From contig JBAQFO010000012.1 in the NCBI GenBank assembly GCA_049287305.1, positions 89,768 through 153,767 of the forward strand: 64,000 nucleotides of DNA, written 5' to 3'. Source of the stretch: Minisyncoccia bacterium. Lineage in GTDB: Bacteria > Patescibacteriota > Minisyncoccia > Phycocordibacterales > UBA9973. Below are positions 1 to 63,839 of this stretch, one piece after another. The notes beneath the pieces were generated by a model. It saw only the letters and a list, made by a program, of their open reading frames with translations, searched no databases and was not told the DNA's origin. Both the position numbers and the translations under genes were made by a program. Positions within the stretch are counted from its first letter, which is position 1; each line of letters begins with the position of its first letter.

Positions 1-42
1 TATCCTCTTATTCTTAAAATTGAAAAAATTCAAAAAGGGATT

Positions 43-390
43 TTGCCTAATATCTTAGAGGATATAAAAACAAATTTCGGTTTGGATTATTTTGAAGGCT
101 CCAAGGAAGAGTATATAAGTCAAATCAAACGCAGACTGGAAATTATAAAAGAAGCTCGTTCACTAAAGCAGGTAACTGCACATGATTTAGAGTACCGAAT
201 CAACAACACCTTAAGAATTTTGGACAAAAAAAGTTTAGGCAAAATTAATGATCCTCTTGCTCATTACCTAAAAGACGACAGGGCTAGGTCATATGTTTAT
301 CAGTTGTTTACAAAGATACAGTTGTTAAAACCTTTCAAAATAGACCCTTATCTCGTGTATGATGCAGGTCATAGAAGTAAAGTGAGGTAG
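43..390 (+). CDS. hypothetical protein; frame is open upstream to nt 1, so this may be the 3' part of a longer gene
   Basis: ORF track 43..390 with a TTG start. The same frame has no stop back to the window edge. Codon usage is AT-rich like the rest of the window, and I see no recognisable motif. Confidence 0.3.
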   Translation: MPNILEDIKTNFGLDYFEGSKEEYISQIKRRLEIIKEARSLKQVTAHDLEYRINNTLRILDKKSLGKINDPLAHYLKDDRARSYVYQLFTKIQLLKPFKIDPYLVYDAGHRSKVR

Positions 391-652
391 ACCTAGGCGG
401 GTTAGGGTCTGAGACTAGAATTTTGGTATAATTCGGAGTATGAAAACTAAGATTCGGGGGGTGATGCAATTACAAGCTTTGATGGTAAAGATTTAACTTG
501 GTTTTTTGCTGGGTTATGTTCTCTTGTTTCAATTGGATATTTTATTTTTCAATATATTAAGAACAAAAACAATCCACTTTAGTTAAGTAAAGTGGAGAAG
601 TCGGGGGTGGTGGTTAGAGGTTGCAGGGGGAAGAGAAAACAAGCAAAACAGG

Positions 653-682
653 TACGTAATGTATTACGTAATACATTACGTA
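653..682. repeat. perfect 30-bp palindrome TACGTAATGTATTAC|GTAATACATTACGTA
   Basis: Read directly from the sequence: the second 15-mer is the exact reverse complement of the first. It is followed by an A-run and then AAGTTATGCAC. Confidence 0.85.
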
Positions 683-969
683 AACAAAAAAGTTATGCAC
701 CTTGGGCATGGCGCTTCGGACGTTTAAGCGTATAGTGGTGTTGAATAGGGGGGAAGCGTGGACATTACCTGTGACAACTGCACGAATAGCAAAATCGGCG
801 ACTTGCTGGTTTGGATCAACAATCTGTGGGGATTCTCTTGCTCTCTTTGTGTGGCAAGATACGAGGAGCAGGAGCGGGAGAAGGAAATCTACCGCAGAAA
901 GTTCGAGGTAAGAGTGAGATAACACCCCGACCAGTTCAGAGAAGGAGGAAGATGAATAGTGAACCCCGT

Positions 970-1011
970 GCGGGCGCGCTCGAAGTTGAGTGCGCCCGCT
1001 TTTCTATTTTT
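970..1011 (+). terminator. intrinsic terminator: GCGGGCGCGC stem, 12-nt loop, GCGCCCGC, then a TTTTCTATTTTT tract
   Basis: A perfect 8-bp GC stem (970-979 pairing 992-999) is followed by a T-rich tract. Only the + strand has the U-run. Confidence 0.7.
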
Positions 1012-1099
1012 AAGTTATGCACTTTTAGAAAGGGCGTGGGGAATTTTTGAGCGTATACTATTGGAGAAACACAGTTCTCTTCGGGAAGGAGGAAGACAA

Positions 1100-1342
1100 G
1101 TGTTAGAGTCTGTTATTGAAGTTTCCGGCTCTTCTTGCTCCTCCTGTCATAGGAGCTTGGAGATTGGAAAGATGGAATGGATTCCCAACGTGGGAGTCAT
1201 GTGTGATGGGTGTGTGAAGCATTACTGGGAGTGGCACAAGGAGTGGGCAGAAGTTCAACGACAGAGGATGATGGAAGATGAAGAATGGTCAGCAGAAGAA
1301 GTTGAAGTTGCTTCGCTTGAAGAGATGGCACTCGTCTCTTGA
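1100..1342 (+). CDS. small GC-rich protein with CSSC...CDGC (CxxC-x22-CxxC), putative zinc ribbon; hypothetical
   Basis: GTG at 1100 is in frame with ORF 959..1342 and is preceded by the SD GGAAGGAGG 8 nt upstream. GC content and GC3 are far above the window background. There is no homology call. Confidence 0.3.
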   Translation: MLESVIEVSGSSCSSCHRSLEIGKMEWIPNVGVMCDGCVKHYWEWHKEWAEVQRQRMMEDEEWSAEEVEVASLEEMALVS

Positions 1343-1699
1343 ACCGAAGGTCAGCCTCTCCATCCACGGCAGTCATGTGTCCATGCGGCAGGAGGCCGCT
1401 CTTTACTTGAGGCCGAGTTGGTAGTCACCCTGTGTTCGCCGAAAGCAGTTCTGCGCGGCGCCCTGGCTGACACGGGGAGAATGTGCGGGGGGATAGAAGA
1501 ATGAGATTACGGTTCGACATTTATTACCATTGTAGCCTCGGCAAGCCGTTGGCGACCATGGAGAAGATACGTCGATACTGTTCCGTCATTGAATGCCCGA
1601 ACCTCGGGCAACGCAAACGAAAGAAGGTGAAGGAAAACCATCGCAGTCTCGCCCGAGAGTAAAGTCTCGCGCCCCGCGAAGCGTGTCAAGCGTGTCCGC

Positions 1700-1728
1700 C
1701 TTTATTTCTGATTGGCATGTGGTATACT
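1700..1728 (+). promoter_or_regulatory. extended -10 promoter TGgTATACT for the ileS leader
   Basis: TGGTATACT at 1720-1728; the -35 is weak. Confidence 0.35.
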
Positions 1729-1734
1729 ACTTTT

Positions 1735-1954
1735 ACAGGCGTTCGAGGGGAGATCACCCCTTCGCCCCGCGAAGCGGGGCAGGCTTCGGGAAGAATTAAG
1801 TAGAACCCGACGGGCAAGCCCGTTATAGCCGTAATGAGAAACCCCGCTCGAAGCGGGTAAAAACAAAGGTGGTACCACGAGCAAAGAAACTCGTCCTTGT
1901 TCAGCAATTCAGTCAGTCTTTTGAATTGTTGTCCGAGGACGAGTTTTTTATTTT
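1735..1954 (+). promoter_or_regulatory. T-box riboswitch-like leader with intrinsic terminator, upstream of ileS
   Basis: AAAGGTGGTACCACGAG at 1865-1881 matches the T-box consensus AGGGTGGNACCGCG at 12 of 14 positions, including the UGGU bulge that pairs with tRNA ACCA. A terminator immediately downstream has arms AAACTCGTCC (1887-1896) and GGACGAGTTT (1937-1946), an inner helix CAATTC/GAATTG and a TTTTTTATTTT tract. GATCA in an upstream hairpin would give an AUC specifier followed by A. Confidence 0.5.
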
Positions 1955-2035
1955 GACAAGAGAGGAGCATATATAAAGTTATTTATATAATATCCGAACG
2001 GTGTCAAAATATTATACCCAGTTATATTTACGAAA

Positions 2036-2296
2036 ATGGACAAAAAAGAAAAAACCATAAAGTTTCTTGGAACGCTTGGCACAACCATAGCTATACTTAT
2101 GTTCGTTTCGCTTCTTGAAATCGCCCGAGCAAACATAAGAGGCGAGAGTCATATATTCATACAGCCGATTATGGTTACAATAAATTGTTTTACTTGGTCA
2201 TTGTATGCTTATCTTAAAAAAGAAAAGTTCGTATTTTGGGCAAATTTCCCAGGAGTCCTACTTGGAATTATTACAATAATAACAGCTTTTATATAA
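2036..2296 (+). CDS. small three-helix membrane protein with SemiSWEET-like topology
   Basis: 86 aa with three hydrophobic segments and Trp and Asn at SemiSWEET-like positions (FTWSLYAY, FWANFPG), but no PQ motif. The stop lies 2 nt before the ileS ATG. Confidence 0.35.
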   Translation: MDKKEKTIKFLGTLGTTIAILMFVSLLEIARANIRGESHIFIQPIMVTINCFTWSLYAYLKKEKFVFWANFPGVLLGIITIITAFI

Positions 2297-2298
2297 AT

Positions 2299-5200
2299 AT
2301 GAGTGAAGAAACAAAAAAAATCATAGAAAAATCTGACGCAGCCTTCCGCGAAGAGAAGGTTTTGGAATTTTGGAAAGATAATAAAATTTTCAACAAGACG
2401 CTGGAAGCAAGTGCCGGCAAGAAAGAATTTATTTTTTACGACGGTCCGCCTACTGCTAACGGCATGCCGGGGATTCACCACCTGATTCCGCAATCTTTTA
2501 AGGATGCTATTCCGCGATATAAAACAATGCGCGAGTTCCATGTCCGCAGAAAGGGGGGCTGGGATACTCACGGCCTTCCCGTTGAACTCTTGGTGGAAAA
2601 AGAACTGGGATTGAAATCAAAAAAAGAAATTGAGAGTTACGGTATTGCCGCCTTCAACCAAAAATGCAAAGAAAGTGTCTGGAAGCACGTGGATGTCTGG
2701 TATAAATACCGCGACCGAGTCGGATACTGGGTGGACAAGGATAATCCATACGTTACTTACCACAACGAATTCATTGAGTCGCTGTGGAGTGTGGTGAAAA
2801 AAATAAACGAACGCGGACTACTTTATAAAGATTATAAAGTAGTGCCATGGTGTCCGAGGTGCGGGACGGCGCTGTCTTCACATGAGCTTGCCCAAGGATA
2901 TGAGGACGTAAAAGATTTATCGGTGACGGCAAAATTCAAAGTTGTCGGACAAAACAATACTTATATCCTGGCATGGACGACGACTCCATGGACGCTTCCA
3001 GGGAATGTGGCACTCGCTGTTGGAGAAAATATTGATTATGTAAAGGTGAAAGTAGGAGCCGAGCTTTATATTTTAGCCAAAGCCCGACTTTCTATAATAA
3101 CCGAATCTTACGAGATAGTGGAAGAGATAAAAGGCGGAGGGCTGATTGGCTTGGAATATGAACCGCTGTTCCCATATTTCAAAAATACGATTTCCGAAAA
3201 TGAAAAACCAAAACTGGAAAAAGCCTTCCGGGTGCATAAAGCAAACTTTGTAACCACGGAAGACGGCACGGGGGTAGTGCATACCGCCGTAATGTATGGA
3301 CAGGACGACTTTGTGCTCGGGAACGAAGTCGGCTTGCCGAAACATCATATGGTAGGGCTGGATGGAAAATTCCTTCCCGGGACTGGCATATTTGAAAGGC
3401 GCTTTGTAAAAGACGAGGAAGTTGCCGTAGATATAATCAAAGATTTGGCTGGACGAGGGCTTCTTTTTAAAAAAGAAAAATACGAACACTCGTATCCGCA
3501 TTGCTGGCGATGCAAAACTCCGCTCATATACTACGCGAGAGATTCTTGGTATATCAAAATGTCTGACCCGAAAATAAAAGCCGAACTCATCAGCCAAAAC
3601 AAAGAAATAAATTGGGAGCCGGCGCATACCCGCGACGGACGTTTCGGCGAATGGCTTCGGGAGATAAAAGATTGGGCAATATCACGTGAGCGATATTGGG
3701 GAACACCGCTTCCGGTGTGGTCTTGCGAAACTTGCAAGAAAACCGAAGTGCTCGGGAGCATAGAAGATATAAAATCTAAAGCAAAAAAATCCGGAAATAA
3801 ATATTTGGTAATGCGGCACGGCGGAACTAATGCCAACAAGAAAGGACTTGTAAGCTATAAAAATGAGGCAAGCGACCACCTGACGGAAGAAGGGAAAAGG
3901 CAAGTCACGGCAAGCGCGGAGAAACTAAGTAGCCAAAAAATAGATTTAATTGTGGCGTCTCCCTTTGTTCGCACTAAAGAAACAGCATTAATAGTTAAAG
4001 ACAAATTTGGCCTCGGCGAAGACCAGGTTGTTTTTGACTCGCGCTTGGCGGAATTTGACCCTGGGGATTTTGACGGCAAAGAATGGAAAGATTATCACAG
4101 ATATATTGCTAGCTCAGGGTCTGGATGGTTCAATCAAACAATCCCGGGCGGAGAATCCCTCAAGGATGTGGGGGAGAGGACGGCGTCCCTCTTATATGAG
4201 ATTGAAAATAAGTTCAGTGGAAAAAATATTCTCATTGTTACCCATGGCGGACCGGCATGGCTTTTGTTCGTTAATTCTGGGTTGTTTATACCAGGAGGCG
4301 AGGCTTATAGGATTCCAAACGGAGAATCTTTCGTAAAAGAATTTCAACAGCTAAGGAATGCCGAGGTTAGAGAGTTACCGTTCGCGCCGTTGCCCCATAA
4401 TGAAAAATACGAATTGGATTTGCACAAACCTTATATTGATGAAGTAAAAATGGTTTGTTCCTGCGGAGGAGAACTTATCCGCACCAAAGAAGTCATGGAC
4501 GTGTGGTTTGACTCTGGTGCAATGCCTTTTGCTCAGGACCACTATCCGTTTGAAAATAAAAAATGGGTGGAAGGGCCCGGGTTCCCTGCGGATTTTATCG
4601 CGGAGGCCATAGACCAGACGCGCGGATGGTTCTATACGCTACATGCCGTCGGAATTTTGATGGGGCGAGGCAAGGCATATAAAAACGTGATTTGCTTAGG
4701 TCATTTACTAGACGCCAAAGGAAAGAAAATGTCCAAGTCTCTCGGCAACGTAGTGAATCCGTGGGAAGTAATGGATAAATATGGAGTGGACACATTACGC
4801 CTGTGGATGTATTCCATAAACCAGCCAGGGGAGTCAAAGAATTTTGACGAGAAAACGGTGGCGCTTCTCTCTCAGCAAGTTTTCGGACTGCTTTACAATG
4901 TGCTGGCCTTTTACGAACTTTACCGAGACAAAAGCTACGAAGATAACTCCAGACCAAGCTCTAAAAATATTTTGGACAAATGGATTCTCACCCGTCTTTT
5001 TGAATTAAGGAATGATGTAACAGCCAACATGGATAGTTATAAATTGTTGGAACCTGTGCGAGGAATGAGAGATTTCATCGGAGACCTTTCTACTTGGTAT
5101 TTAAGGCGGTCCCGAGAAAGAATAAAGGAAGGCGACTCGGAAGCGAAGGCCACTTTATATTTTGTGTTGAAGAGTCTAGCCAAGCTGATGGCTCCGTTCG

Positions 5201-5808
5201 CCCCTTTCGCTGCGGAAGACATCTGGTTAAAACTTAGAACAGACAAAGATAAAGAAAGTGTGCATTTGGAAAATTGGCCGACCGAATCCAATATTTTAGG
5301 CATTCTAATGCGACTACCCGGACAAATGCGCACCCTGGTCTACATGGATGAAGTAAGGAAAATAGTAACCCTGGGACTTGAGGCTAGGCAGAAAACCGGG
5401 ATAAAAGTCCGCCAGCCACTTGCCTCCATCAAGGTAAAGTTCGGGAAGCTTGGAGCGGAATACTTGGAATTAATAAAAGAAGAACTGAACGTGAAAGAAA
5501 TAATCTTTGATGATTCAATTTCAGAGGAAGTATTGCTGGATATAAGAATAGACGAAGAACTGAAAGCGGAAGGAAGCTATCGCGAACTTGTGCGGGCTCT
5601 TCAGGATATGAGGAAAAAATCAGGACTTACGCCGAGCGATGTCATAGCGCTTACCATTGCAACAAACGAAGACGGGAAAGCGTTGATTGAGAAATTCCAG
5701 GCGGACATGAAGAAAACAGTTCTTGTCTCAAATATAGAATTTGCTGAAAATGACGGGGAGAAAATAGTAGTTGATGAGTTGGTTTTCAGGGTTAAGATTG
5801 AGAAATAA
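2299..5808 (+). CDS. ileS: isoleucyl-tRNA synthetase (type-2, Thermus/eukaryote-like) carrying an inserted histidine-phosphatase domain
   Basis: The HIGH-class motif PTANGMPGIHH and the KMSKS motif are both present. The CP1 editing region (TTTPWTLPGN), WGTPLP and DVWFDSG are also there. The start is ATG 2299 (MSEETKK); the track ORF from 2236 is an upstream extension. Confidence 0.93.
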   Translation: MSEETKKIIEKSDAAFREEKVLEFWKDNKIFNKTLEASAGKKEFIFYDGPPTANGMPGIHHLIPQSFKDAIPRYKTMREFHVRRKGGWDTHGLPVELLVEKELGLKSKKEIESYGIAAFNQKCKESVWKHVDVWYKYRDRVGYWVDKDNPYVTYHNEFIESLWSVVKKINERGLLYKDYKVVPWCPRCGTALSSHELAQGYEDVKDLSVTAKFKVVGQNNTYILAWTTTPWTLPGNVALAVGENIDYVKVKVGAELYILAKARLSIITESYEIVEEIKGGGLIGLEYEPLFPYFKNTISENEKPKLEKAFRVHKANFVTTEDGTGVVHTAVMYGQDDFVLGNEVGLPKHHMVGLDGKFLPGTGIFERRFVKDEEVAVDIIKDLAGRGLLFKKEKYEHSYPHCWRCKTPLIYYARDSWYIKMSDPKIKAELISQNKEINWEPAHTRDGRFGEWLREIKDWAISRERYWGTPLPVWSCETCKKTEVLGSIEDIKSKAKKSGNKYLVMRHGGTNANKKGLVSYKNEASDHLTEEGKRQVTASAEKLSSQKIDLIVASPFVRTKETALIVKDKFGLGEDQVVFDSRLAEFDPGDFDGKEWKDYHRYIASSGSGWFNQTIPGGESLKDVGERTASLLYEIENKFSGKNILIVTHGGPAWLLFVNSGLFIPGGEAYRIPNGESFVKEFQQLRNAEVRELPFAPLPHNEKYELDLHKPYIDEVKMVCSCGGELIRTKEVMDVWFDSGAMPFAQDHYPFENKKWVEGPGFPADFIAEAIDQTRGWFYTLHAVGILMGRGKAYKNVICLGHLLDAKGKKMSKSLGNVVNPWEVMDKYGVDTLRLWMYSINQPGESKNFDEKTVALLSQQVFGLLYNVLAFYELYRDKSYEDNSRPSSKNILDKWILTRLFELRNDVTANMDSYKLLEPVRGMRDFIGDLSTWYLRRSRERIKEGDSEAKATLYFVLKSLAKLMAPFAPFAAEDIWLKLRTDKDKESVHLENWPTESNILGILMRLPGQMRTLVYMDEVRKIVTLGLEARQKTGIKVRQPLASIKVKFGKLGAEYLELIKEELNVKEIIFDDSISEEVLLDIRIDEELKAEGSYRELVRALQDMRKKSGLTPSDVIALTIATNEDGKALIEKFQADMKKTVLVSNIEFAENDGEKIVVDELVFRVKIEK
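3796..4410 (+). other. in-frame histidine phosphatase (PGAM/SixA-like) domain inserted in IleRS between the WGTPLPVW...KAKKSG and LDLHKPYIDEV segments
   Basis: The catalytic RHG is at 3814-3822 (LVMRHGGTNAN). Further PGAM-type segments are LTEEGKRQ, IVASPFVRTKETA, RLAEFDPGDFDG, PGGESLKDVGER and a second His motif ILIVTHGG (His near 4243). A Thermus-type IleRS has only about 40 aa between these flanking motifs. Confidence 0.7.
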
Positions 5809-5838: not shown

Positions 5839-5847
5839 TGGTATAAC
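5839..5847 (+). promoter_or_regulatory. extended -10 TGgTATAAC for the small GC-rich gene
   Basis: Read from the sequence. It is followed by GGAGG at 5854-5858 and ATG at 5866. Confidence 0.4.
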
Positions 5848-5865
5848 AAGACTGGAGGCCTAAGC

Positions 5866-6063
5866 ATGGTCAATTGCGAGAGCTGTCAGATGCGGTCGCT
5901 CAAGGAATGTGAACGGTGTGCAACCAATTTCCTCATGGAAAACAAGTGCACACCGGAAGGGGCTCCTGTTCAGGTGGAGCCCTTCGACGCACGCAACCGC
6001 CTTCGGTTCGACCCGAACATGTTCGTGTCGAACCGGAAGCGTCGCCAGCTCAATCCGTCCTAA
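5866..6063 (+). CDS. small GC-rich Cys-motif protein (CESC-x9-CERC), hypothetical
   Basis: The SD GGAGG sits 7 nt before the ATG and a terminator lies downstream. Codons are strongly GC-rich compared with ileS. The region also holds a 12-bp inverted repeat, CTTCGGTTCGAC...GTCGAACCGGAAG. Confidence 0.35.
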   Translation: MVNCESCQMRSLKECERCATNFLMENKCTPEGAPVQVEPFDARNRLRFDPNMFVSNRKRRQLNPS

Positions 6064-6086
6064 GTCCAGCATCCTCTGCTGGCAGA

Positions 6087-6132
6087 ATCCGTCGGGAGCG
6101 CACCTTCGTTGCGCCCGACGGATTTTAATTTT
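6087..6132 (+). terminator. intrinsic terminator: ATCCGTCGGG ... CCCGACGGAT with inner GCGCA/TGCGC, then TTTAATTTT
   Basis: A perfect 10-bp outer stem plus a 5-bp inner stem, followed by a T tract. Confidence 0.7.
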
Positions 6133-23869: not shown

Positions 23870-24338
23870 CTCTACACGCTTAAGTGTTGCATTTGATAAA
23901 AAAGTATGATAATATAAGGCTGAGATGACTTGTCTTTGCGACAGGTTATCCACATAATATATTGCCTTATTTTTTGGCTATATATTATAATGTAATTGTA
24001 TTCGCATGTTGCACGTCATGTGTAATGTGCGGACGCAAATTGTATTTATTTTCCCCTAACCATCTCTTTGGATTTCGTCGAAAAAATCCAAAAAAAGATG
24101 AAGAGGAAAGTAAGGAAAGGTCATTGAAAATTAAATACTCACCCGAGTGCCGAATTAAAACTTTGGCAGGAGGGGGAAGATTTGTTTTCAGTGTGTTAGT
24201 TCGTCTTTATTCGTTGTTTCGTATCCGCTGCATTATTAAAATTTATAAATTATAAGCGGAGAGGGGATGACGATAAGAAAAAAATACGCTTTTAGTTTTG
24301 TCGAAACTTATTAATGGCGTAGAAAATTAGAAAATTAT

Positions 24339-26321
24339 ATGAGTAAATTATTTAAATCAAAATTCCTTCTTGGAGTTATGGTTGTAGCCGTATTGGTTGT
24401 AGGCGGAGTTGCATTTGGTGCAAGCGACGCTTCAGCTGATTGTACAATCGTGAATACCTTGAGGGTTGGTTCTGTAGGCGATGAAGTAAAGTGTTTACAG
24501 GGCAAAGTTGGAGCAACCGCTGACGGCAAGTTCGGTCCTATGACTGCAACTTCTGTTAAGGCTTTCCAAGCTTCCAAAGGATTGTCCCCTGACGGTGTCG
24601 TAGGTCCTATGACCCGCGCAGCTTTGATGGGAGCTCCTACAGGAAACTTCCCAGCAGGTTGTACTTCAGCTTCTGGATTTAGTTCTACAACTGGTCTTCC
24701 ATGTAACAGTGGTCCATCAGCAGGACTTCCAGCAGGTTGTTCTTCAACTGCAGGGTTCTCTCCTCTAACTGGCACAAAGTGTGATAGTTCAGCAGCCCCA
24801 ACACCTGATGGTGATCTAGCAGGAACAGCAGGAACTGTTACATATACCCAGTTGTCACAATACACTAATGAAAAGGTGGGAGCTGGCGTAACTGATACAA
24901 AAATTGCTGGATTTGAACTTGAGGCATCAGACGGAGATGTATCACTTAGGTCATTCAAACTAACCTTTAGTTCCACTGGAAATGCAGCAGCAGATTCAGA
25001 TCGTCTTATTGATTACCTTGATTCAGTATCAATCTGGCAAGGTGAAGAAGAAATCGGTTCTGCTGACACAGTAGACTTCACGAGAGACAGCGCTGGTGTT
25101 TATTCAAAGGTTGTGACTGTTTCTGACGCTATCGTTAGAGATGGTGATACGGAGAAATTCTACATCGCCGTTAACGCAGCAAACAACATAGACTCAGCAG
25201 ATATTGACTCAGATTCTTGGGGTGTTGATCCTATTAACGTAAGATATGAGGATGGAGGTGGTGTAGTGTCAACAGATACTATCACACAGGCTGAAATCCC
25301 ACTTAACTTCGTTACTTCCGCATCAGCAACTGATACTGAACTTAAGCTAACAGTTGATTCAACATTGAAGGCTGGTGTTCAGACTGCGAATGTAACTTCT
25401 GACACAAATGATGTTCTTATCTTAAAGGGTACTTTGGAAATAGAAGGTTCATCTGATGTTTGGTTGGATGAAGTTCCATTCTTGTTTACTACAAACGCTA
25501 CAAACGCGGATGCTGTATCAAACACTGTATACTTTACTATTGACGGAACAGAATTCTCAGAATCTATGGGTTCTGCAGTAGGAACTACAGAAGTTATTAC
25601 CTTTAACGAGCTTGATAAGACTCTTGCTCCTGGTAAATACACATTTACTGTTACAGCAGATGTGAATGATATTGAGGACAGCACATTTGACGAAGGAGAC
25701 TACTTGTTAGCAGAATTGGATGCTACTCGTCGTGCTTCTATCGTTGCTCTTAACACAGAGGGTGGCGATCAGTTGACTGACGCTACAGAAATGACTGGTG
25801 TTGCCGCAGGTACCATCCAGTACTTCTATTCAAAGTCACCAACGGTTACAGTAGAATCAAAGTCTATCGTAGCTAACGATAACGGTTCAAGCGCTCCATC
25901 TTCTGCAACTGCTAAGATGAGACTAAAGATTGTAGCTAACGGCGGAACCATCTACCTTAACGGTGATGATGAAACCACACAAGCTGAAGAGTTCTTTGGT
26001 ATAGCTGTTGATGGAGGGGATGCAAGTTCTTCAATCAGCGCTACGGGATATACATTTACACCATCAGGCACTTATACTGTTACAAACAGTGGTGCTGATA
26101 ATGAATACTTCACTATGAATGAAGGTGACATAATGTATATTGACATTGAAGCTACAGTCGTAGAAGCTACCGGTTCAGCTGCTATACTAGTAGGTATGAA
26201 GGGAGACGAAATTTCCTTCGGTACTGATAGTACATCTGGAGCTACTCGTTCAGCTAACGACTTGAGCTTCACAGCGTTAACTGATCTCTTGAAGACAGGA
26301 AAGGTAACATTGGATAGCTAA
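24339..26321 (+). CDS. secreted or cell-wall-associated protein with a PG_binding_1-like domain, two Cys-bracketed repeats and a large beta-rich region
   Basis: N-terminal signal or anchor. CLQGKVGATADGKFGPMTATSVKAFQ resembles a peptidoglycan-binding domain. The repeats are GCTSASGFSSTTGLPC and GCSSTAGFSPLTGTKC. Confidence 0.6.
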   Translation: MSKLFKSKFLLGVMVVAVLVVGGVAFGASDASADCTIVNTLRVGSVGDEVKCLQGKVGATADGKFGPMTATSVKAFQASKGLSPDGVVGPMTRAALMGAPTGNFPAGCTSASGFSSTTGLPCNSGPSAGLPAGCSSTAGFSPLTGTKCDSSAAPTPDGDLAGTAGTVTYTQLSQYTNEKVGAGVTDTKIAGFELEASDGDVSLRSFKLTFSSTGNAAADSDRLIDYLDSVSIWQGEEEIGSADTVDFTRDSAGVYSKVVTVSDAIVRDGDTEKFYIAVNAANNIDSADIDSDSWGVDPINVRYEDGGGVVSTDTITQAEIPLNFVTSASATDTELKLTVDSTLKAGVQTANVTSDTNDVLILKGTLEIEGSSDVWLDEVPFLFTTNATNADAVSNTVYFTIDGTEFSESMGSAVGTTEVITFNELDKTLAPGKYTFTVTADVNDIEDSTFDEGDYLLAELDATRRASIVALNTEGGDQLTDATEMTGVAAGTIQYFYSKSPTVTVESKSIVANDNGSSAPSSATAKMRLKIVANGGTIYLNGDDETTQAEEFFGIAVDGGDASSSISATGYTFTPSGTYTVTNSGADNEYFTMNEGDIMYIDIEATVVEATGSAAILVGMKGDEISFGTDSTSGATRSANDLSFTALTDLLKTGKVTLDS

Positions 26322-32577: not shown

Positions 32578-32604
32578 ATCCCGTAGTAGATTTTTAATTA
32601 GATT

Positions 32605-32877
32605 ATGTTCTACACATATATATTACAAAGTCAGAAAAATAAAGAACTATATATTGGTTATACTTCAGATTTAAAAAGAAGAGTCGAAGAACATAATCAA
32701 GGGTTAAATTTTTCTACAAAAAGATATATTCCATGGAATATCATATACTACGAAGCGTGTATAGAAGAAAGTGATGCTAAGCGCAGAGAGAAATATCTGA
32801 AAACAACACAAGGGAATAGATTAATAAAGAGAAGGATAAAAGATTATATTTATAAGTTGAAAAATTTAACAAATTAA
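32605..32877 (+). CDS. small stand-alone GIY-YIG nuclease-superfamily protein, copy 2
   Basis: MFYTYILQSQKNKELYIGYTSDLKRRVEEHN. It is bracketed by the imperfect inverted repeat TCCCGTAGTAG (32579-32589) and CACTACAGG (32883-32891). Confidence 0.75.
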   Translation: MFYTYILQSQKNKELYIGYTSDLKRRVEEHNQGLNFSTKRYIPWNIIYYEACIEESDAKRREKYLKTTQGNRLIKRRIKDYIYKLKNLTN

Positions 32878-32891
32878 AAATTCACTACAGG

Positions 32892-34232
32892 ATGATAAAT
32901 ATAATCAATAAAATTAAAAGTTTAACACTCGAGCAGATAAACAAAAACCTAGTTTTTTTGGCTATTATCGCCTTAATTTACCGAAAAGGTAATTTTTACA
33001 ATACTTTTGTTCCAAAGCCATTTGAAATAATTCTCGTACTGATTATCATTCTTACATTTGTGCATTTACTAATCAATAAGAAATTTAAAGCTTTTTTCTC
33101 TTCAATTGATAAAAAAATTTGGATAGCATTGTCGTGCCTCCTGGTATCTGTTTTTGTGGGCTGGGCTGTAGCTGTATTTTTTAAGAATGTGCCGATAAAT
33201 TTCAATGTTATTTTAGAGTTTGGGAATTTTGTAATTTCTTTGGTGATATTTGTATTGGTTTTATTTTACACAAAAAATGATAAAATATTTGCCCAAAAAT
33301 ATTTATACGCATTACTTTTGCCGGCTGTATATACGATTTTTGTGTTATTCACCGAAGGGGCTAATTACTTTAACTTGGAAAACAACGGCACATTTCTTGG
33401 GCTTACAATCAATCCGAATATAATTTCTAAAATATTGCTTATTCCTGCGTTATTCTTTATAACGCATTCTTTGTTTAAACTTCAAAACAGGTGGCTGAGA
33501 ATTGGATATATTGCTATTTCTTGCGCTATGGTTGCTTTATTGTTTTGGGTTGCATCCAGGGGAGGATTGGTTTCTTTGGCGATTTCAATGATGTTCGTGT
33601 GGCTTGTTTTTTCTTTACATCATTTTAATTGGAAAAAACTATTTTATAGTGGTGGACTTCTCTTCATTATATTTTTAATTGGATTTCTTATAACTCCGCA
33701 AACTGGGAAGCAGAGGGTTATCCTTCGAGCTTTATACCCAAGTGGATCTGATTATTCTAGTTATGTCGAAGTTATAAATAAACCGGTTGACGATATTGTA
33801 TCTAAATTTATTACTGATAAGTCAGATAAGCATGTTTTTATTTATGCTAATGGAGAAAATCGTTTTAAAATTTGGCCATTTTATTTAAAGTACATATTGA
33901 TGAACCCACTTGGTATAGGGCCAAATACTCACTTGAGCTTTAGCTTAAAGGATAATGTTGGAGAATATATAAATTCAGGTCCACATAATACTTTCCTACA
34001 AATTTGGCTATGGGGAGGACTGCTAGGGATACTGAGTTTCTTATATATCTTTATCAATGCATTTAAAAACCTAAGATTACAATTAAAATCAGAATTTAAT
34101 CCTACTGCCTTGGCATTGCTTGGAGTTCTATTTGCTGTTAGTATTTCTGTCATGTTTGATGACAGCTTATCATTTTTTTGGTTTTTTATAATTTTAGCTT
34201 TGACATTGAGATATGAAAATACCAGTAGTTAG
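32892..34232 (+). CDS. O-antigen polymerase/ligase-like (Wzy family) membrane protein
   Basis: About 11 TM helices; the WVASRGGLVSLAISMMF pattern is typical of the Wzy_C region. Confidence 0.45.
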   Translation: MINIINKIKSLTLEQINKNLVFLAIIALIYRKGNFYNTFVPKPFEIILVLIIILTFVHLLINKKFKAFFSSIDKKIWIALSCLLVSVFVGWAVAVFFKNVPINFNVILEFGNFVISLVIFVLVLFYTKNDKIFAQKYLYALLLPAVYTIFVLFTEGANYFNLENNGTFLGLTINPNIISKILLIPALFFITHSLFKLQNRWLRIGYIAISCAMVALLFWVASRGGLVSLAISMMFVWLVFSLHHFNWKKLFYSGGLLFIIFLIGFLITPQTGKQRVILRALYPSGSDYSSYVEVINKPVDDIVSKFITDKSDKHVFIYANGENRFKIWPFYLKYILMNPLGIGPNTHLSFSLKDNVGEYINSGPHNTFLQIWLWGGLLGILSFLYIFINAFKNLRLQLKSEFNPTALALLGVLFAVSISVMFDDSLSFFWFFIILALTLRYENTSS

Positions 34233-62486: not shown

Positions 62487-63068
62487 ATGGAAATTCTAGG
62501 TAAAATATTGGGCAACTCTGCGCGGGTAAAAATAATGCGCCTCTTCCTCATTAATAGAGGTAAAACTTTTGCGGCCAAAGACGTGGCGAAAAGAAGCAGA
62601 GTAGCAGCTCCCATGGTGCGTCGGGAACTTCGCCTTTTGGCATCAGTTGGATTCATAAAGAAACGAGGGGCGAATTGGTCTTTTGATGCTCAGTTCCAAT
62701 ACGGTTCGGAGTTTGAAGACCTCCTTTTAGGAGGAGACACTTTAAGCAAAGAATCAATCCTGGGGAACTTCAAGAAAGTCGGACGCATTAAGCTGTTTGT
62801 CGTTTCCGGCATTTTCATTAAAAGCCACGAAAGCAGAGTGGACTTGCTTATTGTTGGAGACAAAATGAAACGGGGGAGGATAGAGGAAGGGGTAAAAAAA
62901 ATGGAAGCCGAAATGGGCGGAGAATTGTCCTACGCCGTCTTTGAAACTAAAGAATTCCTTTACAGACTAAATATGTATGACAAGCTGGTTCGGGACATCT
63001 TAGACTATCCTCACGAGGTAATTCTTCAGGCGAAGGAGTTATCCACACAAACCCTTAAAAAGGCTTAA
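62487..63068 (+). CDS. putative transcriptional regulator: N-terminal winged-helix (ArsR/MarR-like) plus an uncharacterised C-terminal domain
   Basis: The start is placed at MEILGK. The wHTH pattern is ARVKIMRLFLINRGKTFAAKDVAKRSRVAAPMVRRELRLLASVGFI. Confidence 0.4.
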   Translation: MEILGKILGNSARVKIMRLFLINRGKTFAAKDVAKRSRVAAPMVRRELRLLASVGFIKKRGANWSFDAQFQYGSEFEDLLLGGDTLSKESILGNFKKVGRIKLFVVSGIFIKSHESRVDLLIVGDKMKRGRIEEGVKKMEAEMGGELSYAVFETKEFLYRLNMYDKLVRDILDYPHEVILQAKELSTQTLKKA

Positions 63069-63146
63069 AATTTGGTATAATAATTCTAGAACTTTAATAA
63101 GGTCGAAACTTAAAAAAGTGCTTTTATTATTAATTAATTATTTATT

Positions 63147-63839
63147 ATGGATAATAATCTTTGGCTTGCGTGGAGCGACGTGTTTACTCAGTCGCTTCAA
63201 ACTCTTTGGTGGAATTTCGTTCAATTTACACCGAGATTGGTTATAGCTATCGTTTTCTTTGTTGTGGGTTGGTTGCTGGGTTCCCTTATTGCGCGAGCAA
63301 TAGAGCAAGTATTTAACAGCTTGAAAATAGATGGGCTGTTTTCATCTATTGGTGCTGATAATTTCTTGAGAAAGGCCGGAATGAATCTCAATACGGGATA
63401 TTTTGTCGGACAAGTTGTTCGATGGTTTATCATAATCGTATTCCTTCTTCCTTCTCTTAATATCGTAGGGCTTTACGATGTCGCCTCTTTCTTGAAAGAC
63501 GATGTGCTTGGATATTTGCCGCAAGTTATCATCGCCGCGTTTGTGCTTATCATCGCCGCGCTTGTTTCTGAAGCTCTGTCCAAGACAGTCTTGGCTACCA
63601 GCAAAGCTATGAACCTACGAGCAGCTAACATGCTTGCGACAGTAGCTAAATACGCTGTCTGGGTGTTTGCTTTCATAATCGCTCTGGGCAAACTCGGACT
63701 TAACGACTACATGAGCATTCTATTCTCAGGAATCATCGCCATGCTTGCCCTCGGAGGCGCTCTCGCTTTCGGCTTGGGTGGCAAGGAGCACGCTTCTCGC
63801 CTCATTTCCCGTCTCGGGGAAGAGGTTTCCGAAAGATAA
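63147..63839 (+). CDS. conserved membrane protein with duplicated TM-helix repeat (MscS-N-terminal/PF05552-like), hypothetical
   Basis: Two similar halves, each a TM helix followed by a short amphipathic segment. Confidence 0.4.
   Translation: MDNNLWLAWSDVFTQSLQTLWWNFVQFTPRLVIAIVFFVVGWLLGSLIARAIEQVFNSLKIDGLFSSIGADNFLRKAGMNLNTGYFVGQVVRWFIIIVFLLPSLNIVGLYDVASFLKDDVLGYLPQVIIAAFVLIIAALVSEALSKTVLATSKAMNLRAANMLATVAKYAVWVFAFIIALGKLGLNDYMSILFSGIIAMLALGGALAFGLGGKEHASRLISRLGEEVSER

Follow-up and report, generated by a model that had tools for sequence, protein, structure and literature searches.

The segment 600-1345 of the window analysed here, a 64-kb stretch of DNA from a metagenome-assembled genome of Minisyncoccia (Parcubacteria, candidate phyla radiation (CPR)), is located between the arginyl-tRNA synthetase gene argS and the T-box-controlled isoleucyl-tRNA synthetase gene ileS. 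We conclude, with a probability of roughly three in four, that this segment is composed of two tandem, paralogous and monocistronic cassettes for small proteins, and not of a small RNA (sRNA) or riboswitch, and with the same probability that these represent the first two-thirds of a lineage-specific array of mini-genes reaching from argS to the T-box-ileS operon. In each cassette the box AAGTTATGCAC is followed after 30 or 31 nt by the hexamer TATAGT or TATACT, respectively, then by a Shine-Dalgarno site and by an open reading frame (ORF) for a C4 zinc-ribbon protein, ORF-A of 54 amino acids (aa) in the first and ORF-B of 80 aa in the second cassette; a terminator closes cassette 1.

In the public annotation of an equal contig (GCA_049303715.1, JBAQNI010000003.1) the gene order is NUDIX, thymidylate kinase, dUTPase, ArgRS, two hypothetical proteins (ORF-B among them), SemiSWEET and IleRS. 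The only gene annotated in 390-2036 is a hypothetical protein of 93 aa (1061-1342), and the segment falls in a nearly unannotated gap of 1.65 kb upstream of ileS. Motifs and genes of the host genome were searched for in these 64 kb. The original prediction had described the segment as GC-rich and highly structured, with a duplicated module, and had proposed a transcript of about 270 nt, from about 745 to 1011, as a novel sRNA or riboswitch-like leader, or else as part of a horizontally acquired islet, followed by a GTG ORF. The features on which it was built, i.e. the palindrome at 653-682, the hairpin at 970-999, the two boxes, the -10 strings and the GTG ORF, are all present. The segment is richer in GC than the window (47.7% versus 39.8%), but less strikingly so than had been put forward, ileS being at 44.2%. 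Overlooked was an ORF of 54 codons with the pattern CxxC...CxxC (ORF-A), which fills the supposedly non-coding transcript.

The coding status of ORF-A emerges from comparison with relatives, for which 80 loci were fetched around IleRS homologues of 59-69% identity (loci are given here as L numbers). An 893-bp groundwater contig of a sister strain (L083, Hainich H51 sample) is 95% identical to cassette 1; six synonymous changes, all at third positions, and two non-synonymous changes separate its ORF-A ortholog (P0002) from ORF-A (S=31.7, N=127.3; ratio of non-synonymous to synonymous substitution rates, dN/dS, about 0.08). Start and stop are both kept, the former as ATG instead of GTG and the latter as TAG instead of TAA. 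ORF-A and ORF-B are paralogous: the proteins share 36% identity in a global alignment, with all four cysteines in register (C13/C16 and C35/C38 of ORF-B with C5/C8 and C28/C31 of ORF-A) and 18-19 residues between the CxxC pairs. The Smith-Waterman score of the two proteins, 57, compares with 24.5+-4.8 for shuffled sequences and was reached by none of 2000 shuffles. BLASTP missed this relationship, for which the global alignment and the shuffle test were needed, and no similarity of the two genes is detectable in DNA outside the promoter.

For ORF-B, the GTG ORF of the original prediction, translation as a gene finds support in L083, which carries an ATG at the very same position as the GTG at 1100. 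The annotated 93-aa version with a TTG start at 1062 is probably too long; the 80-aa product is favoured because of this ATG and because the annotated TTG lies between the -10 hexamer and the likely transcription start.

The two proteins belong to a very small family. An exhaustive search of 1.84 billion representatives with a two-protein profile found P0001-P0004 only, that is ORF-A and ORF-B themselves (ORF-A as the two-residue variant P0002) and two proteins of 71 aa (P0003) and 60 aa (P0004). A six-member profile run against 5.8 billion proteins returned six proteins, adding only P0005 and P0006. At least one further, unannotated member is present in L099 (E=4e-5), bringing the family to about 7-10 known members, all at one locus in a few CPR bacteria. 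Every member found by profile lies between argS and ileS, behind the same module of box and -10 region and followed by a terminator.

In the AlphaFold2 model of ORF-B (mean predicted local distance difference test score (pLDDT) 75; block means of 83-93 over residues 11-60) the cysteine pairs sit on two short beta-hairpins, with strands at 25-28 and 32-35, and a long helix spans residues 36-79. The two CxxC knuckles on beta-hairpins that define a C4 zinc ribbon are thus seen in the model, and metal binding is predicted. In these properties (two CxxC pairs, beta-hairpins plus helix in the model, 54-80 aa) the family resembles known C4 zinc-ribbon and treble-clef microproteins such as Pfam Zn_ribbon, DksA/TraR (PF01258) and the ClpX zinc-binding domain; it differs from them by the lack of any significant match to Pfam, to PDB sequences or to a known fold, and by its restriction to one locus. 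Pfam assigned no family to ORF-A, ORF-B, the downstream ORF-C or the six family members, the best matches of the family, each in a single member, being Prok-RING_1 (E=0.12) and zf-dskA_traR (E=0.86). The family profile reached at best the UvrA zinc finger among PDB sequences (E=0.14), and Foldseek against PDB gave a best E of 0.37. Three candidate identities were discarded: a detached C-terminal zinc finger of IleRS (PF06827) was not reported even at E<=10, a DksA/TraR-like factor appears only at E=0.86 in one of six members, and ORF-C, considered as a third paralogue, aligns with scores at the level of shuffled sequences. The combination of a zinc ribbon with an acidic helix suggests an adaptor binding protein or nucleic acid.

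The second line of evidence is the promoter module. Only two exact copies of AAGTTATGCAC are present in the window (690-700 and 1012-1022), and AGCGTATAGT and AGCGTATACT are its only exact matches to AGCGTATAST, at a gap from the box of 26 nt in module 1 and 27 nt in module 2. When judged by DNA alignment within the window, the duplication is marginal (score 26 versus 19.5+-2.3 for shuffles, which reach a maximum of 29); what sustains the idea of a duplicated module is the fixed spacing of its two boxes and, above all, the related loci. The sister strain differs by one base from box to -10 in promoter 1. More generally, a conserved box AAAAGTTATRCMC at about -55 to -43 is followed 30-31 nt later by a -10 region RGCGTATAMT. 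In L002, L006, L016 and L024 the box AAGTTATRCAC precedes ileS by a few hundred bases on the same strand (in L002 twice, at a distance of 333 bp), each time with a -10-like hexamer 30-32 nt downstream (TATAAT; CATACT in L016). Copies of the module were also reached via the protein homologues in L082, L083 (three) and L084 (two), and a metagenome scan with AAGTTATRCMCYT-N24-27-GYGTATAVT added L096, L099 and L106 together with some chance matches. The sequence GTTATNCAC occurs 29 times in 1.15 Mb of related DNA; at ten of these sites a -10 match follows after 29-32 nt, no other spacing being enriched. The comparative search proposed with the original prediction thus turned up a conserved module in at least 13 copies at fixed distance, and the reading of TATAGT and TATACT as -10 elements is borne out by TATAAT, TATACT or TATAGT occupying the same place in these related modules, as in a sigma-70 promoter.

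Neither a -35 hexamer 16-18 nt upstream nor an extended -10 TGn was found at the cassette promoters, and a scan for sigma-70 promoters called no -35/-10 pair at either window module. The bases ahead of the -10 are GCG and not TGn; the T-box promoters of the clade instead carry TGnTATAnT. As -35 and TGn are both missing, we infer that the box recruits RNA polymerase via a bound factor, i.e. that it is a factor-binding or UP-like element substituting for the -35. A GCACC...GGTGC hairpin with T-run in the spacer between box and -10 was considered as a defining feature and dropped, since no more than 6-7 of 16 modules have it, and neither window module convincingly. A literature search for promoter motifs of CPR bacteria gave nothing relevant.

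Our best guess for the factor is DnaA, which is to be taken as a lead and not as a result. Promoters regulated by DnaA through DnaA boxes include those of dnaA and nrdAB in E. coli and of sda in B. subtilis. As in these, the core of the box, TTATGCAC(C/T), agrees with eight of nine positions of the DnaA 9-mer TTATNCACA; the modules carry the core TTATGCACC or TTATGCACT, and L002 and L016 the perfect TTATACACA. The match is thus 8/9 in both window boxes and 9/9 in L002 and L016, and falls to 7/9 in the second module of L083 and the first of L084. In distinction to the known promoters, there is here a single box at a fixed position near -50, with an invariant AAAG on its 5' side, and some modules have TTATACCCC. 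Perfect TTATCCACA boxes 29-32 nt from a -10 also precede two unrelated genes of the window, at 23945 and 63038. At the former site (23945-24339) the perfect box (GTTATCCACA) lies before a gene for a PG_binding_1 protein with a leader of about 350 nt, in the architecture of the cassette promoters; at the latter (63038-63147) the box (GTTATCCACA) and a -10 at the cassette-type distance lie before a mechanosensitive-channel-like gene. Neither dnaA nor oriC was found in context in the window, a 446-aa ORF at 32892 considered as DnaA being a Wzy_C protein. In L046, several copies of CCCCTTRCATGTTATCCACAG containing a DnaA box are present in both orientations just upstream of ileS (about 5859-5915) and at 690, 4358 and 14775; an oriC-like cluster is conceivable, or else a small family of repeats.

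The coordinates of the features are collected in the table below. The hairpin at 970-999 has the properties of a rho-independent terminator: 13 base pairs, ten of them G-C, followed by TTTTCTATTT, at 48 nt past the stop codon of ORF-A. Its stem-loop is identical in L083, and 29 of 30 positions are identical in the L084 lineage, whose IleRS is only 66% identical. Ahead of the terminator lies a copy of the ORF-B leader with a Shine-Dalgarno-like element, and a similar AGGAGGAGA precedes the same terminator in L084; the element may be the relic of a lost cassette or a functional element.

Table. Features of the argS-ileS intergenic array, with positions in the window.
Feature	Position	Strand	Remarks
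Palindromic hairpin TCCACTTTAGTTAAGTAAAGTGGA, core ACTTTAGTTAAGTAAAGT	573..596	.	Conserved; inverted repeat I9; upstream edge of variable region; no T-run
Perfect 30-bp palindrome TACGTAATGTATTAC-GTAATACATTACGTA	653..682	.	Inverted repeat I2; three TACGTA cores 12 bp apart; about -90 to -61 of promoter 1
Upstream box 1 AAAAAGTTATGCACC	686..701	+	About -57 to -42; core TTATGCACC matches 8/9 positions of DnaA box TTATNCACA
Promoter 1, -10 region AGCGTATAGT	727..736	+	Hexamer TATAGT 731-736; no -35, no TGn; predicted start about 743
Shine-Dalgarno-like GGGGGGAAG for ORF-A	748..756	+	Sequence; kept in L083
ORF-A, 54-aa C4 zinc-ribbon protein (CDNC...CSLC)	758..922	+	GTG start; unannotated at NCBI; paralogy to ORF-B, ortholog in L083
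Shine-Dalgarno-like TTCAGAGAAGGAGGAAG, copy of ORF-B leader (GAAGGAGGAAG)	935..951	+	Between ORF-A stop and terminator; repeat family D2
Intrinsic terminator of cassette 1, GCGGGCGCGCTC-GAAGTT-GAGTGCGCCCGC then TTTTCTATTTTT	970..1011	+	Hairpin 970-999, 12-13 pairs
Upstream box 2 TTTAAGTTATGCACT	1009..1023	+	Box match
Promoter 2, -10 region AGCGTATACT	1050..1059	+	Hexamer TATACT 1054-1059; predicted start about 1066
Shine-Dalgarno GGGAAGGAGGAAG for ORF-B	1083..1095	+	Sequence; kept in L083
ORF-B, 80-aa C4 zinc-ribbon protein (CSSC...CDGC)	1100..1342	+	GTG start, GGAGG 7 nt upstream; long acidic C-terminal helix
ORF-C, 53-aa Cys-rich basic protein (YYHC...C-x4-C)	1501-1662		Unannotated, no Pfam match

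The palindrome at 653-682 is of a different nature from the terminator hairpin. It is AT-rich, is absent from the sister strain L083, and is 100% identical to positions 1030-1059 of L004, where it is flanked by an extended -10, TGGTAGAAT, and by the start codon (ATG) of a 58-aa protein of the MazE/AbrB/SpoVT family (PF04014; 34.2 bits against a cutoff of 24.7). The two hairpins had been taken as equivalent parts of one layout, which these differences contradict. Related palindromes with three cores are found upstream of PF04014 homologues in L061 and L074, so that in all three lineages the palindrome stands at the promoter of such a gene, as an operator would. PF04014-type proteins are widespread in CPR bacteria (214 clusters). 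From these matches the window palindrome is probably an AbrB/MazE-type operator, which would be used in trans by a regulator encoded elsewhere; its perfect symmetry argues for such a live operator. It could also be a recent recombination scar. Base for base it equals the element in operator position in L004, as in autoregulated PF04014 genes, but it lies upstream and not downstream of the promoter and has no PF04014 gene in the same 64 kb. No toxin partner accompanies these genes in any locus seen, the PF04014 gene of L004 having no toxin neighbour, and positions 1-4000 of the window contain no MazEF-type pair of adjacent antitoxin and toxin genes. TACGTA repeats directly after argS, with no adjacent regulator gene, in L008 and L061 suggest AbrB-type control of the argS-ileS locus in several lineages. 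Repeat palindromes of the TACGTAAT type at or after the argS stop are located at 1290-1325 in L061 and at about 5765-5785 in L008, there just upstream of the ileS T-box promoter.

The array varies between strains. L083 has an extra, third zinc-ribbon cassette, placed precisely at the junction of terminator 1 with box 2; the number of cassettes is two in L084 and one in L082. Conservation is much stronger in the boundaries than in the ORFs: where IleRS is 66% identical between lineages, the boundaries have stayed nearly the same, and the ORFs share only 20-40% identity. Behind the same box other cargo may be found, i.e. an HNH-like ORF of 131 aa (L006), members of the ORF-C family (L016, L024) and Arg- or Lys-rich peptides (L002, L105). 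Tandem small genes, conserved boundaries, variable ORFs and a copy number differing between strains recall the gene-cassette arrays of integrons. In distinction to integrons each cassette here has its own promoter and terminator, and these, not attC-like imperfect palindromes, form the boundaries; no integrase or attC-like sites are nearby, and the variation is explained by homologous recombination between the repeated boundaries. It is possible, if still rather doubtful, that the AAAGTTATRCMC box marks a distinct, -35-less and factor-dependent class of Parcubacteria promoters (perhaps with DnaA as the factor, in the role of a general transcription factor for genomes poor in regulators), which together with the conserved terminator frames a recombining, integrase-free chromosomal cassette array diversifying zinc-ribbon microproteins, with additional control of AbrB type.

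Other explanations of the segment have to be weighed. A novel structured non-coding RNA, whether sRNA or riboswitch-like leader, from about 745 to 1011, with fortuitous small ORFs, would account for the folding of 743-1011 (z=-3.6 against shuffles) and for a GC content above the genome background, and the equivalent units of L002, which hold only Arg-rich ORFs of 21-34 aa, indicate that some units of this promoter class could be non-coding. Most of this folding is however due to the terminator (z=-2.2 without it), and the stretches 1066-1420 and 1343-1730 are at about -0.5, so that the segment is highly structured in its first unit only. No known RNA family was recognised in 600-1345 on either strand: the covariance models of Rfam 15, run over the whole window at gathering score, gave no match there, a search by E-value over 350-2100 gave nothing real there at E<=10 (a 17-bit minus-strand match is at chance level), and ARAGORN found no tRNA or tmRNA. 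With the coding-frame substitutions of ORF-A, the paralogy at protein level without similarity in DNA, and homologous proteins which in syntenic loci keep the cysteine ligands, we consider the non-coding reading very improbable. For a leader there would moreover be no gene directly downstream to control, because the terminator follows ORF-A. The short unit from about 743 to about 1011 is itself supported, as the putative mRNA of ORF-A. Equally hard to credit is that translation of the small ORFs, as upstream ORFs or leader peptides, tunes the T-box-ileS operon in cis. The cassettes are always just upstream of ileS and on the same strand, but each has its own terminator, isoleucine codons are not enriched in them, and the T-box has an extended -10 promoter of its own and a complete terminator/antiterminator; L082 has a cassette and no T-box, and many relatives have a T-box and no cassettes.

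A remnant of foreign DNA beside ileS, be it phage, plasmid or a mobile islet of toxin-antitoxin type, is unlikely, though less so than the two preceding readings. GC content and GC content at third codon positions (GC3) exceed those of neighbouring genes (GC3 is 0.49-0.75 in all family members, against 0.30-0.50 in host genes), the palindrome and the number of cassettes vary between near-identical strains, the palindrome matches an element upstream of an antitoxin-like MazE/AbrB-type gene elsewhere, and the cargo between argS and ileS differs by lineage (besides the HNH-like ORF of L006 there are hydrolases and deaminases in L099 and L061). To this extent the horizontally acquired islet of the original prediction retains some basis. 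It is contradicted by the absence of palindrome and module from 2.9 million viral contigs, by the lack of any blastn match of 600-1345 in 50,697 phage records and 72,556 plasmids, and by a locus devoid of integrase, transposase, toxin gene or flanking direct repeats. Across lineages whose IleRS are 47-68% identical, neither the zinc-ribbon family nor the module was found at any other place in the chromosome, which argues for a resident, fast-evolving variable locus and not for a recognisable mobile element.

Some points weigh against the reading as two protein-coding cassettes under the control proposed here. There is no full-length ORF-B ortholog from which dN/dS could be calculated, and as no family of Pfam or PDB is matched, no function can be transferred. 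The raised GC3 is compatible with exchange between lineages. A tblastn search of the window found no AbrB/MazE gene, and the palindrome may therefore be no more than an inert scar of recombination. Position 9 of the box, and in some relatives also position 7 (TTATACCCC), does not fit the DnaA consensus, and the invariant AAG on its 5' side lies outside the canonical DnaA box. Transcription starts, termination and translation are all deduced from sequence.

If the two-cassette reading holds, the locus would work as follows. Two independent promoters would fire at about 743 and 1066, each aided by a factor bound to the box, and a short leader with a strong Shine-Dalgarno site would drive the translation of ORF-A or ORF-B. 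The terminator would end unit 1 and insulate promoter 2, and unit 2 would probably read on into the conserved ORF-C and be co-transcribed with it, because no strong terminator lies between them. An AbrB/MazE-family protein encoded elsewhere would bind the palindrome and repress or modulate cassette 1. Recombination at the repeated boundaries, box and terminator, would add cassettes to the array and remove them.

The core of the conserved hairpin at 573-596 is found in L083, in the L004 lineage and in L034, L036 and L024; as ACTTTAGTT..TAAAGT it recurs near the locus in six lineages, with perfect symmetry over 18 bp in L036. The element may be a further protein-binding site or an RNA hairpin. 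Upstream of it, 424-582 has an extended -10 promoter TGGTATAAT, an ATG at 440 and a run of seven G, after which comes a frame that has no start codon and whose product has a transmembrane segment at its C-terminus, similar to a 137-aa membrane protein of L034. Either this is what remains of a gene after truncation or frameshift, or slippage occurs at the G-run. Between ORF-B and ORF-C, the stretch 1343-1500 has 61% GC and contains no ORF, Rfam match, excess folding (z about -0.5) or detectable conservation. In L016, L017 and L024 a homologue of ORF-C immediately precedes the ileS T-box, and those of L016 and L024 follow the same box promoter as the cassettes.

The real riboswitch of the locus is the isoleucine T-box at 1733-1956 (RF00230). 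A GC-rich, structured leader of an aminoacyl-tRNA synthetase gene is thus present as had been suspected, but at this site, nothing in 600-1345 resembling a T-box. Rfam matches 1733-1901 with 49 bits against a gathering score of 93; the match is below threshold because Stem I is short, and hence is missed by default. The leader has its own extended -10 promoter TGGTATACT (1718-1726). GGGGAgAUCaCCCC contains the AUC specifier, GGUGGUACCACG at 1868 is the T-box sequence, and the terminator spans 1884-1949 ahead of a U-run; the specifier hairpin, the GGUGGUACCACG box and the terminator are shared by 49 of the fetched loci, likewise upstream of ileS. A SemiSWEET gene (2036-2296) lies between leader and ileS. 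IleRS (2299-5808), as well as its relatives, has a histidine-phosphatase domain (PF00300, His_Phos_1) inserted in the middle of the synthetase. Directly downstream of ileS, at 5840-6130, there is a further GC-rich mini-unit with TGGTATAAC, GGAGG, a 65-aa ORF at 5867-6064 (CESC-x7-CERC) and a strong terminator (6088-6125); the public annotation of this stretch gives no more than a 42-aa ORF, and by profile search the unit is outside the ORF-A/ORF-B family. Further away, a small ORF at 32600-32880 in a glycosyltransferase/O-antigen cluster resembles, by eye only, a GIY-YIG-type nuclease (YIGYT..L..R..EH).

The apparently empty, GC-rich gap of 1.6 kb thus resolves into two microprotein genes, one unannotated and the other probably mis-started, with their promoters, a terminator, a probable AbrB-type operator and the adjoining isoleucine T-box. 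None of the parts is of a new kind, be it the promoter, the Shine-Dalgarno site, the zinc-ribbon microprotein, the intrinsic terminator or the AbrB-type operator. New are an undescribed and very rare protein family, the gene of ORF-A and a probable correction of the ORF-B start codon, as well as a recurrent promoter module without -35 but with a DnaA-box-like upstream element, and a cassette-like organisation with conserved boundaries. The locus exposes a family of tiny zinc-ribbon proteins mostly missed by gene callers, and a conserved promoter motif from a phylum with almost no known transcription signals. Should the box prove to be no factor site, what is left would be ordinary small-gene biology and a correction of the annotation; if it is indeed a site for DnaA or another factor, it would provide a handle on regulation in organisms not yet culturable.

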